DNA of 64,000 nt from Octopus vulgaris (Eukaryota): the NCBI GenBank assembly GCA_951406725.2, contig OX597815.1, positions 103,850,001 to 103,914,000 on the forward strand. The letters run 5' to 3'. Positions within the stretch are counted from its first letter, which is position 1, and every line of letters starts with the position of its first letter. Below are positions 11,237 to 45,819 of this stretch, one piece after another. Below the pieces are notes generated by a model. It saw only the letters and a list, made by a program, of their open reading frames with translations. It made no database searches and was not told the origin of the DNA. The position numbers were made by a program, and so were the translations under genes.

Positions 11237-13590
11237 ATTAGTTTCGGATTACAACATAATAGAGCTGCCTATGTATGGACCAAAAGTATCCTAAAGGAAG
11301 CATCCAAATTCTCTCCGATCTGAACTTCCACAAAGCATACTGAAAATCAATCCAAAAAGAAATCCTCAAACAGGAATGGCCGAAATGTCTCCCCACATCA
11401 GGCATTAGCTTGAAACTAGAATATTTCATGTCTGATATGCAACCTATATGCTAGAAATATGTACCAGAGCACAAAAAGGAACAATATTCCAGAGGAGAGG
11501 AAGATCCTCATGAGATGACGGACGAAGGTTGCAAATTGCTTCAACCAAGATTCCAAAAGTAGTGAAAGCGCCCGCCTAAAAACAGCACTGACGGAGATTG
11601 AAAAAAAACCTGTAACACTCCTATGTGAGGGAGAGAGCAGACAAAGAAGCCAAGGTTTTAAAAAAACCATTAAGTCAAACCCAAAGGCCTTCTTTCATTA
11701 TGCCAAAGACACAGCTTCAGTACGCTGCAAAATAGGACCCCTCTTCGAGAAGGATGGCTTTCTCACAGATAGTCCAACCAGGATCAGTGAGGTACTGAAT
11801 AACCATTTCGAAAGTGTCTTTACCATACCGTTGGAACACAGACAAGTGATCGAACCAGTGGATTTTTTGCCGCCTCATCTATAACCAGGGAGGCAGTTAC
11901 GGTGGAATACATCGACATAAGCTGAAAAGATGTAATACTAGCCATAGGTGAGGTGGACGCAAACACAACTGCTGGTCCTGATGGTTTCCCAGCAATCCTC
12001 CTCAAATCGTGTAAACTTGACCTAGCGAAATCACTACAGATTCTGTTCCAGAGCTTTATTGCAAATGGCAAGCTGCCAAGCAAACTGAAGAAGGGAATAA
12101 TATGCCCAATCCATAAAGGAGGAAACAGAGCAGATGTCAAAAACAATAGGTCTATCTCTCTGATTTCATACATGAGCAAAGTCATGGAACGGATAGTCAT
12201 AGGGAAACTAATAGCATTCCTTGAAGAAAAAGACTTGCTGAGTGATACCCAGTATGGCTTTCGACCAGGTAGGTGCTGCCTGACCCAGATATTACAGCAC
12301 TATGACTGGGTGTTGAAGCAGTTACTCAACAACTCAAATGTGGAAGTAACACACCTTGACTTTGCAAAGGCTTTTGATACAGAGCATCATAGTATGATAT
12401 GCCACAAAAAGCGGGATCTCGGCATAGCTGGAAAACTAGGAGAGTGGTTACATGACTTTCTGAATGAAAGGAGTCAGGTAGTAGTGACCAATGGAGCTAC
12501 CTCAAGGAAAATACAAATAGTGAGCGGTGTTCCACAGGGCACTGTCTTGGGGCCACTGATTTTCATAGTGGCTCTCGCAGATATGCCCTCAGCTGCCCGG
12601 ATAGCCATCCTTGCTAGCTACGCAGACGATACGAAAGTCTCGCAGAAAATACAGAACCCCAGCAATGTTGCACACCTGCAGCAGCAGTTCGACTCAATTT
12701 ACAGATGGGCTAAAGTTATTAATATGCAGCTTAATGCTGAAAAATTCTAAGCCCTGCGTTACCAGCGTCCAAAACTGAATATGAAACTTACAGGGTACAC
12801 TGGTCCACGGGAGATTACAATCCCAGAGCCTAAATCAATTAGGAGCTGGGTATCGACATGAGTGATGATACTTCTTCTAAGTGCATATCACCAGGATGTC
12901 AACAAAGTGTAGACAAGTGGATGGATGGATCCTAAGAACGATCAGAGCCACAGAGAAGGAAACCATGATGGTCCTCTGGAGAGAATCTATCTTCAGCCTG
13001 CTGGATTACTGCTTCCAGCTATGGTCACCCAACAGCGTAAAATTAATAGCGGACCTTGAAGCAATCCAGCGAAGCTTCACAATGAAGATCGTCTCATTGT
13101 AACAGCTCAGCTATTGGGAATGGCTGAAACAGCTAAGACTCTATTCCTGGAGCGAAGGCAGGAGAGGTATGCAGTAATATAATCTGGAAGATTCTGGAAG
13201 GAATTGTGCCAAATTTTGGCATTGAAAGCTACAAAAATACCAGAACGGGTCGACACTGCAGAGTGACAAAGGTCCCAGCAATGCCATCGCGCTTCAGGAG
13301 CTGTTACTGCAACAGCCTCGGTTTCAAGGGCTCACAACCTTTTAATATTGTCTCAAAGAGCCTGAAGGACCTACACAAAGTGGATGTAGGTGTTTTCAAA
13401 TAAAAACTGGACGTCTTCCTGATGAGAATCCCAGATGAACCTACCTCGCGGGATGAAGTGCAAATGAGATTAGCGACATCAAACTCCCCTATTCACCAAA
13501 TGTCACATATTAGAAAAGGCTCTCAATAATAACAGTGTAGCAAAACGGCAGTGCCCCAGCATGGCCATAGATCTGAAGTGAAACTAGAAA
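11237..13590 (+). mobile_element. 5'-truncated CR1-group LINE with disrupted ORF2 (end of APE, RT, C-terminal region, 3' tail)
   Basis: Motifs SDYNIIEL, KSNPKAFFHYAK, AGPDGF, PIHKGG, QYGFRPGR, HLDFAKAFD, SGVPQGTVLGP, YADD (12619-12630) and LDYCFQLWSP. Several stops and frameshifts. Confidence 0.93.
11953..12750 (+). pseudogene. Reverse transcriptase core of the CR1-group LINE (longest open stretch, 265 aa)
   Basis: ORF track translation carries the RT motifs through YADD. Bounded by premature stops. Confidence 0.9.
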
Positions 13591-41959: not shown

Positions 41960-42342
41960 GTAAAATAAGAATTCAAAATAGAATCAGATACTTGAAAAGA
42001 TATGCACCAGGTAGGATTGGATAAGCCTATGGTTGGTAAGTATCAAACACGATATCCCTGTTGTGTACTCAGAGTGAACCAACCCTATGAGTATTTAGCG
42101 ACAAGGGGCTGATCCAAAGCACACGTTACGTTGAATTGTACGTCGTTGGTATACTCTAGGGTGTCCAACAAGTTGTAATCCCCTTGGTGTTTTACAATCA
42201 AATTCGATGAATAATTGTCAGTTCATTACAACTGTTTCTTACGTATCTTTTTAAGAGAAGAATGAGAACATTCCTGCATTACAAAAAACCGTAATCATCA
42301 GATGAAACGTAATTTTACAGTTACGGAAGAATTTCCCGATCT
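41960..42342 (-). mobile_element. Naiad-family PLE pseudo-LTR fragment
   Basis: Starts at a TA tract. 42210-42340 is homologous, in inverted orientation, to 44715-44830 at the end of the Naiad-like body. Confidence 0.75.
42222..42306 (-). ncRNA. Type I hammerhead ribozyme with canonical core
   Basis: Minus strand reads uucau-CUGAUGA-uuacg-(46-nt loop)-cguaa-GAAAC-aguu-GUA-augaa. Predicted cut between 42227 and 42226. Confidence 0.85.
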
Positions 42343-42623: not shown

Positions 42624-43039
42624 CCCGCGTGAACGTACAATCAACAGTATGATGATACATGTTGATTTTATTAGGTATTTCTGTTTATTCAGAAACCTAC
42701 AATGAAGAGATCATTTCACACAATGCTAAACTATAAGTTTCACAGGGCACAACCTTAAAGTTGACACTTCTCTGCCAAACACAGAAAAATACTGTCGCAC
42801 TCTTGGTAAAAATACAGGGGTTTTTTTCAATTTTTAAACCGCTGTAACTTTTTTTCAATTTTTTTCTCCACATCATACCTTCAAAGCAATGAGACTGGAA
42901 AGCTACGTTATTATACATTACTGTCTTTTATAAAATGCATATTTTGCGAATGAAAAAACTAAATCCGAATTTTCTAATTTTTTTGCGTGTTCTTTCCAGT
43001 ATAACTTTGCTGTTATTGTGTATGACAAAGAGAGCATCG

Positions 43040-44830
43040 TCTCTGTATAGAACAACAAATAACATAGTATAACCCTCCCTTCAATTACATAATAGATAAT
43101 AATATAGGTAGAAAATTATTTAGCATACTAAAGGACAATTTCCCTCCTTCACACAAGTATTACCATTTATTCACCCGTAGAAACGTTAGGGCCTCCAACT
43201 CAACACTTCCCACTTTAGGTACAACTATAGATGGCCTGAATAAGAAACACGTATAAATGGCCCGGAGTATTAATAATACCCGTAACAGCACCGTTCCTCA
43301 TAAAAATCGCAATAAGAATAACAATAATAATAATATTAATATTCCTCCTATCACTGCTATTTCAGTCGTCACTAATACTGTATACAACAATACCATCACA
43401 GAGCAAGTCCTTTCAGTTAGTAGATATTATAATACCGGTATCAGTCAGCCTGCCACTAAAGGGGATAGCATCTGTAACAACTCTACCACAATTACTAATG
43501 GTGGCAGCAGTACGGATTCTACTAGTTTAAGTTCACACCATATCGTATACCACTCCCTACAGCCCTAACACTCTCTCCGCTATCTGTAAGGACCTGCCCA
43601 TCTACTTCCAGTCATGTTGATATGCTAATCGCACAGAAAACTAACACCAGTGCTGAAACTTTGGCCTCTAGTGTCACTATTTGAAAGTCAAACCTCTTAC
43701 GACAATGCTCAGTACCAACATTCTCAAACCCTGGGTTCGACAATTAATTATAACCGTATTGATCCTAGTAATATAAACCCCAGTAACAACCATACGAAAC
43801 CTGTAGTTCTCGCGAGCGTGAACTATTACGCCATAATAACGTTGGATCGCGTACCCGTAATAATACATTTCAAGTCTTAGAAAATATTGGGTGCAATTGT
43901 TTAGATATAATATTATATCCACTCTTTTGTCGATGTCTAGCAGTAAATGTGGTTTCTAAATGTGATGTTGTAACGGAGACCCTACTGCTGGCTTTCTCTG
44001 ATATCCGATCTGGTGTTTCCTCAAACTCCGTACAAGGTACAGTATATTATATAACCCCACTTTTTCTTTAAACGCCTTGATGATAAGTAGTACTCTACCA
44101 TTGCTACCAGGTTTTTCCTCTCCAGACAAACATGTTCTAATATTTCAAGCGATCCCCACTAACCCATATACATATTCATATCTAAAACAACACCCTACAT
44201 CTTTCTACCATACAAGATAAATCATTCGCGCTTAACACTACATTTCTTTAAAAGTTAGATCTTATTATTCGATTGCCTTTGTACCCTCCTCCAACTTTCA
44301 ACCAATATCCACAGAATACCCCTAAATTCTGTGTATCTCCGCCCTCCCCCCTTTGTCCTTTAACCTTAGCTAGCGAATCCTAAACCCCGACTCTATACCT
44401 AATTGGCATGTATGCATTTATTTTTTCTTCACCTTTACCTTTGCTTTCTTTCTTTATCCTTAATCTATCTTAGGTCCTCTCCCAACTACCCACTGCTCTA
44501 AGCCTACTATAATAAAACATCACCTACACTTCACTCCAGCCTACCTAAGATCCAGTCTATTAGATTCCTATCTCAGCCGGGTCGCTGACCTTAGATATCA
44601 TGTTACACCCTTTCACAAACTATATTCTTAACCGCAACGGTCAAGTTTGTTGGTCATTCTCCCATTTCACAGTTGGCCTCGAAATACTTCAACCGCGTCC
44701 ATGCTGTATTCTTGGGATATTCTTTTGCTTGTAAAATTACGTTACATCTGATGATTTTTGTAATGTTGTAATGTTCACATTCTTCTATTAAAAAGATGCG
44801 TAAGAAGCAGCCGTGATGAGCTGACATCGT
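43040..44830 (+). mobile_element. Naiad-like PLE 3' part: linker, CxC motif, decayed GIY-YIG, C-rich region and degenerate HHR
   Basis: From 43068: YNPPFNYIIDNNIGRKLFSILKDNFPPSHKYYHLFTRRNVRASNSTLP, matching the WFNPPF...NIG...HFP...H linker pattern. From 43892: CNCLDIILYPLFCRCLAVNVVSKCDV, and later ISKTTPY. HHR relic CTGATGA (44748)...GAAGC-agcc-GTG (44804-44815). Confidence 0.8.
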
Positions 44831-44954
44831 ATGTCATTATTCATTTGTATGCATATGTGAGTGGATTTCGGAGACGGAAATTGAAAGAAGCTTGTTGTAT
44901 ATATATATATATATATATATATAAGCGAGAAAGAAGCAACAAGAATGGATAGGT

Positions 44955-45045
44955 TTTTAGTACAATCGTTTCATACAAGGACAGGCTTTATTAAAAGTTG
45001 CAAAAATTGCAGCATATAAACGTGTCCCGTACTCATCAGCTAAAA
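44955..45045 (-). ncRNA. Mirror-image type I hammerhead ribozyme
   Basis: Exact reverse complement of 45237-45327, within the palindrome. Confidence 0.88.
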
Positions 45046-45236
45046 TACATGTGAGTTCTCTAGACATCCTAGTGGTTGAGGCTATACTCATGAAGTAATG
45101 TAGATAATTAAGTAACATAAACAGATTTCCAAAGTTCATTTAATGAACTTTGGAAATCTGTTTATGTTACTTAATTATCTACATTACTTCATGAGTATAG
45201 CCTCAACCACTAGGATGTCTAGAGAACTCACATGTA

Positions 45237-45327
45237 TTTTAGCTGATGAGTACGGGACACGTTTATATGCTGCAATTTTTGCAACTTTTAATAAAGCCTG
45301 TCCTTGTATGAAACGATTGTACTAAAA
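45237..45327 (+). ncRNA. Type I hammerhead ribozyme with canonical core
   Basis: uuuuag-CUGAUGA (45243-45249)-guacgggaca...uguccuuguau-GAAAC (45310-45314)-gauu-GUA-cuaaaa. Stem I is 6 bp and stem II about 10 bp. Predicted cut after 45321. Confidence 0.88.
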
Positions 45328-45819
45328 ACCTATCCATTCTTGTTGCTTCTTTCTCGCTTATAATCACCCCACATTACTGTATTGTTAAAACCGTATAGTT
45401 TGTTTTGGTGCATCTAAGTTAGGTACCATATTCAAGTAAATTCATTTAAATTAACTTGAATCTTTATTGCTTTTTGTATATATATATATATATGTATGAA
45501 CGTATGTGTATAAGCGTAAAACATCCTTTCTTTCCTTCCCTGAGTGTCCTCGCGTTGTTGTCTCCGCCTATCAAATGCTCGCAATACTTTAGTTAGGTAG
45601 AGCTATAGTGATTGACATTTGCCCAAAGTGTCGTGCAGTGGGAGTGCACTCGAAACCATGTGGTTGGGAAGCAAACATAAGACATGTGTCATATCTGCGT
45701 GTGTGAATGTGTGTGTATGTGGGTGTACGTGTGTGTGTATTAAATAATGTATAAATATGTATATGAGTGTGTGTGTATGCGTATATATACGTATATGTGT
45801 CTCACTGTGTATGTTTTTT

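Follow-up and report, generated by a model that had tools for sequence, protein, structure and literature searches.

The question raised by this locus is what a perfect palindrome with a hammerhead ribozyme (HHR) motif on each strand represents in an octopus genome: an element in its own right, an error of assembly, or the trace left by an element of a known class. The window (the whole 64-kb stretch of Octopus vulgaris DNA that was analysed) was compared with the rest of the genome, and the answer is given below from the locus outwards.

The palindrome at the locus

Among the 25 longest inverted repeats listed for the 64-kb window, the palindrome ranks first and is the only one with 100% identity. 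Its arms (44920-45140 and 45142-45362, 221 nt each) are exact reverse complements separated by a single T, just as the original prediction had described them (Table 1). The palindrome had also been placed within (TA)n, with a right arm extending for about 115 bp to a second TA tract. Tracts are indeed present on both sides, but the outermost four nucleotides of the left arm (TATA, 44920-44923) are part of the (TA)13 tract at 44898-44923, and the extension is a tail of exactly 114 nt (45363-45476).

Table 1. Features of the young palindromic insertion (positions in the window; unit positions of the parent element are prefixed u)
Feature	Position	Strand	Remark
Left (TA)13 target tract	44898-44923		Last 4 nt match the element at its short end
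Inverted arm, 3' part of the pLTR	44920-45140	-	Short end E1 (u4518-4522) inward to u4302
Type I hammerhead motif, mirror copy	44955-45045	-	Predicted cleavage between 44961 and 44960
Head-to-head junction	45139-45141		TT microhomology 45139-45140 (2 nt) and spacer 45141 (1 nt)
Direct arm, final 338 nt of the pLTR (u4299-4636)	45139-45476	+	Identical to the 5' pLTR of L079
Type I hammerhead motif	45237-45327	+	Self-complementary stem III octamer 45313-45320; predicted cleavage after 45321
PLE tail, 114 nt	45363-45476	+	Between short end E1 and long end E2
Right (TA)n target tract	45477-45494		

A decayed, older Hydra-type inverted insertion lies nearby (42216-42319 and 42967-43050 on the minus strand, 43050-43244 and 44730-44826 on the plus strand). 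Its two HHR-bearing arms are 82% alike over 104 nt and its reverse transcriptase (RT) fragments meet head-to-head at 43050. Just past its right arm comes the (TA)n in which the young palindrome lies. Fragments of LINE-type reverse transcriptase (Pfam RVT_1) were also found in the window, at 894-1292 on the minus strand and at 11519-12750 on the plus strand.

Parent element and clade

When the right arm was searched against the genome, all 40 candidates that were scored, out of 1,938, matched it over its full length at 99-100% identity. The entire element, composed of a pseudo-LTR (pLTR), an RT ORF, GIY-YIG, a 3' UTR and a pLTR, is seen at the locus L032, and pLTRs resulting from a partial tandem are present in L032, L079, L080, L084 and L086. 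The unit measures 4,636 nt. Its predicted HHR cut site follows u4481, and of its two ends the short one (E1) lies at u4518-4522 and the long one (E2), 114-118 nt further on, at u4636.

The 338 nt at 45139-45476 are letter-identical to the pLTR of L079, whose intact ORF encodes a 957-aa RT/GIY-YIG protein. This identity bears out the origin from a Penelope-like element (PLE) that had been proposed for the locus. It also supports the youth of the insertion, for which the perfect arms alone are no proof, since 30 of 65 arm pairs in the family are identical; what argues for youth is the identity to a copy with an intact ORF. Judged from these comparisons, the locus is almost certainly a young 5'-truncated insertion of a Hydra-clade PLE in (TA)n, and what had been taken for a distinct non-coding or retrozyme-like element is a truncated copy of an autonomous, ORF-bearing member of that clade.

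The single ORF of L079 carries YRDD in its RT and YIG in a C-terminal GIY-YIG endonuclease. Pfam gave no match on the whole ORF, and on the endonuclease domain alone GIY-YIG was found with an E of 0.0013, below its cut-off. An uninterrupted ORF was present in 7 of the 20 loci fetched by endonuclease match, mostly those with the longest frames. The published description of the Hydra clade gives as diagnostic RWK, DKT, CxCX5C, CxxC and CxH motifs and no CCHH, together with a (TA)n target and canonical HHRs (PMC8557442). The L079 protein has RWK at residue 37, DKT at residue 124, CKCRIKSKC (CxCX5C) at 818 and CVH (CxH) at 945; CQLC (CxxC) and a single Cys ahead of YIG are visible in the alignment, CCHH is absent, and the family shows both the sense HHR near the 3' end and the (TA)n target. 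The ORF also holds two Asn-rich inserts (about residues 515-575 and 655-815, with 30% and 35% N) that are absent from 11 homologues; similar inserts are reported in rotifer Penelope elements (PMC3846280). By motifs and by eye, the likeness to the reference elements points to a new family of the Hydra clade, within a known class. Naiad/Chlamys elements were considered on account of (TA)n and rejected because the domain order differs, the endonuclease being here C-terminal and not N-terminal; moreover, the motif is DKT and not DKA, and an HHR is present.

Two copies lying 4.6 kb apart on C9 (L031, G000:C9:18041500-18051000) looked like a full element and proved to be a tandem segmental duplication, each unit of which holds a truncated copy inside very long TA-rich tracts. 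A second young subfamily (L088 and its relatives), about 81% identical to the reference unit, comprises at least 40 copies at 98-100%.

Head-to-head layout across the family

The 22-mer at the start of the tail has 545 exact matches in the genome (control, 0). Layout was tallied for 90 of the first 100 tail matches listed, nine having been collected previously and one being unfetched. A head-to-head junction was found at 65 of these 90 loci by script and at three more by eye, 13 had no inverted arm, and nine outran the fetched stretch. An inverted 5'-truncated arm is present in 68 of the 81 resolved copies, with the 114-nt tail at one end only. The whole HHR lies in both arms in 52 of 65 cases, and the median duplicated arm is 252 nt. 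The inverted 5' copy of the original prediction is found in its family at large, and palindromic copies do exist elsewhere in the genome; the supposed rarity did not survive the survey, the palindromic layout being the family's usual one and already in print. As the insertion is a head-to-head double copy of the PLE end, an HHR on each strand is normal for this family.

The two ends are used in a regular manner. Exact junctions of TATATA with E1 number 45 (control, 0), and among 104 tabulated junctions, a few with eroded or cut-off ends, neither a long-long nor a short-short pair was seen. With a looser HHR pattern, 22 of the first 100 matches listed form head-to-head pairs (hand count). In related families, the distance between cut site and (TA)n was short (34-50 nt) on one side and long (137-232 nt) on the other in six of eight such pairs, the exceptions being L225, with two short-looking ends, and L221, which is unreadable.

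The locus itself is ordinary, a real product of a known class, and the literature already describes inverted copies of PLEs with HHRs on opposite strands, as well as their tails and the targeting of (TA)n. The family matters modestly, and its interest comes from the mechanistic pattern at the family level, not from the locus. Through its copies the genome may have gained hundreds of perfect hairpin loci, and with at least 545 tail copies and 4,895 related HHR motifs there are many potential sources of long dsRNA in the octopus genome.

The hammerhead motif and its folding

On the plus strand the motif comprises a 6-bp stem I (45237-45242/45322-45327), CUGAUGA (45243-45249), a stem II region of 60 nt (45250-45309), GAAA and the octamer ACGAUUGU (45313-45320), with cleavage predicted after A45321; this layout is mirrored on the minus strand. 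An HHR motif is thus present on both strands as announced, except that stem II opens with a G-U pair and not with G-C. The core CUGANGA/GAAA/NUH and the three helices are present, helix III having just 2 bp as a monomer.

The Rfam hammerhead models, with which the original prediction proposed to confirm the motif, gave no match at E<=1 over 10 kb nor at E<=10 over the arm. The Rfam matches obtained were hairpin-driven miRNA/sRNA models alone, below the gathering score, and a PDB sequence search returned 0 matches. In 21 loci hand-picked for diversity, 4.81 of 6 stem I positions pair within a locus versus 2.81 across loci, the first pair being G-C, U-A, A-U or C-G, and one of the 21 loci has no stem I; for stem II the values are 4.67 versus 2.45 of 6, inflated by the offset chosen for each locus. 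The looser HHR pattern has 4,895 matches in the genome versus 4 for the control. This covariation of stems across related families suggests that the hammerhead is likely genuine, as first proposed.

Of 100 genomic HHR matches listed, 91 have a self-complementary stem III octamer, a hand count giving 56 ACGATCGT, 18 ACAATTGT, 17 ACGATTGT, 8 ACAATCGT and 1 other. A self-complementary helix III is expected to lead to dimeric HHR folding (PMC4209133); since CpG decay and the search pattern both confound it, the apparent covariation of the octamer is a mere hint of dimer pairing. In the isolated 91-mer the HHR is not the minimum-energy state (forced fold -12.5 versus free fold -14.5 kcal/mol; z -0.32). 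In the whole insertion, the 221-bp duplex (-411.7 kcal/mol) wins by about 137 kcal/mol over the fold with the HHR forced (-274.9 kcal/mol), so that in any read-through RNA the HHR is predicted to lie buried in the duplex, as had been anticipated, and to remain uncleaved.

HHR cleavage was also considered as the source of 5' truncation and found to be without support: seven insertions end in u4474-4490, versus 0-8 per 21-nt bin elsewhere, and among 65 junctions no arm ends exactly at the cleavage site. Full-length copies pass through the cut site twice. The lack of any sign that cleavage sets the 5' truncation agrees with what is described for the anole PLE PAc, whose HHR is protein-assisted and dispensable for insertion (PMC11167929).

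Formation of the palindrome

The two arms of an insertion were compared in 65 pairs, the subset of 103 junctions for which 60 or more sites could be compared. Arms diverge by 0.33% within an insertion versus 2.00% between insertions. Alleles common to both arms comprise 146 minor and 28 private ones, and two polymorphic sites are discordant. The inner ends are at most 25 nt apart in 32 of the 65 sampled insertions, compared to a permutation mean of 4.2 and a maximum of 13 in 5000. The arm that reaches further is the short-end arm in 30 insertions and the long-end arm in 27, the two being equal in 8; that either arm may reach further is an outcome which a single fold-back primed at E2 is unable to produce. 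Microhomology, scored against a single reference copy, marks 29 junctions, filler 31, and 5 are blunt. Forty-nine junctions are near-symmetric, and seven of the 44 that could be anchored have no spacer, six of these coinciding with self-complementary words no longer than 4 nt, which are too short to make a hairpin loop. As a few junctions recur at separate loci, pause sites do exist. A zero-spacer centre at u4070 recurs at the separate loci L114 and L068, and L134, L136 and L155 share centres that are mirror images of each other, at the boundary between HHR stems I and III.

How PLEs build tandem and inverted structures is described as an open question (PMC8557442). In vitro, PAc nicks and extends both target strands with no HHR needed, and synthesis starts at two sites inside the RNA which mark the limits of the tail (PMC11167929). 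No paper linking the two start sites of a PLE to inverted insertions was found in the open-access literature.

The many copies of the family suggest that such insertions are likely to form by copying one RNA twice. On balance, and from sequence comparison, we lean towards a palindrome made of two cDNAs that started at two sites of one RNA and were then linked head-to-head, because the arms share donor alleles, the inner stops coincide and either arm may be the longer. This proposal starts from what is observed here: the identity of the family, its two fixed ends, with an inverted insertion having one of either kind, and the donor alleles common to both arms. Both nicked target strands would prime cDNA on the same element RNA, at its two fixed start sites. 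The short-end (E1) cDNA would be made first, and the 114-nt tail, still single-stranded, would then offer the second strand a priming site at E2 from which the first cDNA would be displaced, strand displacement by the PLE RT being assumed. Both cDNAs would end close to a common 5' point of the RNA, and short microhomology or filler would join them head-to-head ahead of fill-in. The HHR would simply be carried along twice by the insertion; in the parent element it is likely to serve not insertion itself but the processing of tandem RNA, slowly and with the help of dimerisation or protein.

More generally, the chances seem to us even that PLE inverted repeats and one-sided tails are the outcome of one event, in which a single RNA is primed by both target strands at two fixed sites and the second priming displaces the first. 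If true, this would be a duplicating form of twin priming, a mechanism known from L1. In one copy, L055 (G000:C3:18911773-18914798), the long arm stops at the short-end site (u4523, with a 4-nt microhomology); such a stop would be expected had displacement of the first cDNA by the second failed. That just this one copy shows it counts against the proposed mechanism. In L084/L085 (G000:C2:37614500-37630000) both arms exceed one full unit, which implies a tandem or circular template.

Alternatively, the centre could arise by fold-back, the first cDNA snapping back and copying itself, with a second priming or an endonuclease cut supplying the other end. Self-priming has been proposed for palindromic PLE junctions (PMC3846280). 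Fold-back would account for the shared alleles and for short spacers of 4-25 nt, and the fillers of L128 and some other copies resemble snap-back synthesis, a point that counts against two primings. Nevertheless, the short-end arm is the further-reaching one in 30 of 65 insertions, and a cDNA primed at the short end would be without the tail; spacers of 0-2 nt are found at 14 of the 44 near-symmetric junctions, L090 shows kilobase asymmetry on a 2-nt microhomology, and a second priming or cut is likewise required for the other end. On the other side, later deletions at the centre of palindromes could yield asymmetry in both directions, again a point against two primings. Overall, fold-back appears possible but rather doubtful. 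A further scheme, in which two RNAs of one donor are bridged by a dimeric protein or by HHR stem III and each primes one strand, would suit the self-complementary octamers (91 of the 100 matches listed, by hand count), the existence of pause sites and the predicted dimerisation of the PLE protein (PMC11167929). This scheme is made improbable by inner ends that coincide far more often than in a permutation that keeps the hot spots, by the absence of long-long pairs, and by the presence of just two discordant polymorphic sites despite several coexisting subfamilies.

The centre junction of the window recurs, with other flanks, at G000:C14:51971494. An identical junction at a second locus would be in line with a self-propagating non-coding palindromic element of the retrozyme type, in which the double HHR or the hairpin is functional. 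However, both arms of the C14 copy carry three alleles unlike those of the window, and its outer junction is a different one. Its identity is 97.6% with the window but 99.4-99.7% with other insertions, whereas the window matches the ORF-bearing copy L079 at 100%. Since their closest relatives differ, the two palindromes arose separately from different donors, which argues against self-propagation. Tandem monomers are also absent and the centre positions spread across 0.6 kb, so that this reading is largely refuted and very improbable. The perfection of the palindrome could equally suggest a fold-back read or an assembly artefact, yet finding the same junction with other alleles at an independent locus argues against it; furthermore, the outer end falls on the family's fixed E1 base and not at random, the arms differ from each other in 35 of 65 pairs, and fillers are frequent at junctions. 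An artefact is hence the least credible of these explanations and very unlikely.

Taken together, the one short and one long end, the same-donor arms and the coincident stops narrow the models of PLE inverted insertion. With hundreds of copies and intact ORFs, this young family lends itself, both through its natural copies as data and as an experimental system, to testing the priming of two cDNAs on one RNA.

Comparison with known systems

Non-LTR retrozymes also carry a type I HHR and are described as derived from PLE pLTRs (bioRxiv 10.64898/2026.07.22.740005); their defining trait is a direct tandem of HHR-bearing units, which is absent from this locus. The PLEs of Schistosoma likewise have dual HHRs on opposite strands, about 100-700 bp apart, as well as a palindromic helix III that points to dimers (Cervera and De la Pena 2014, PMC4209133). 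Unlike theirs, the HHR studied here is not minimal, because helix III and loop 3 are present. PAc, a Poseidon element, resembles the family in its two internal start sites, the extension of both strands and an AT-rich target, and belongs to another clade than Hydra (Frangieh et al. 2024, PMC11167929).

Within the Hydra clade, Hydra-1_Obim from Octopus bimaculoides shares the (TA)n target and a protein alignable by eye. It represents a different family, with a length of 2507 bp, another HHR sequence and no reported pLTR (PMC8557442). The family described here differs from other Hydra-clade PLEs by its 957-aa ORF with two Asn-rich inserts and by its 60-nt stem II region; its unit is 4.6 kb versus generally <3 kb in that clade (PMC8557442), a descriptive and not a diagnostic difference, and its tail is 114 nt versus the 30-40 bp quoted for PLEs. 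It is alike to Penelope-13_HM and other Hydra-clade PLEs in RWK, DKT, the CxCX5C linker and CxxC/CxH around E and N, as well as in the sense HHR near the 3' end, the short palindromic stem III and the (TA)n target (Craig et al. 2021, PMC8557442). According to the supplement of that paper, Penelope-13_HM itself has a 5'-truncated inverted copy with an HHR on both strands.
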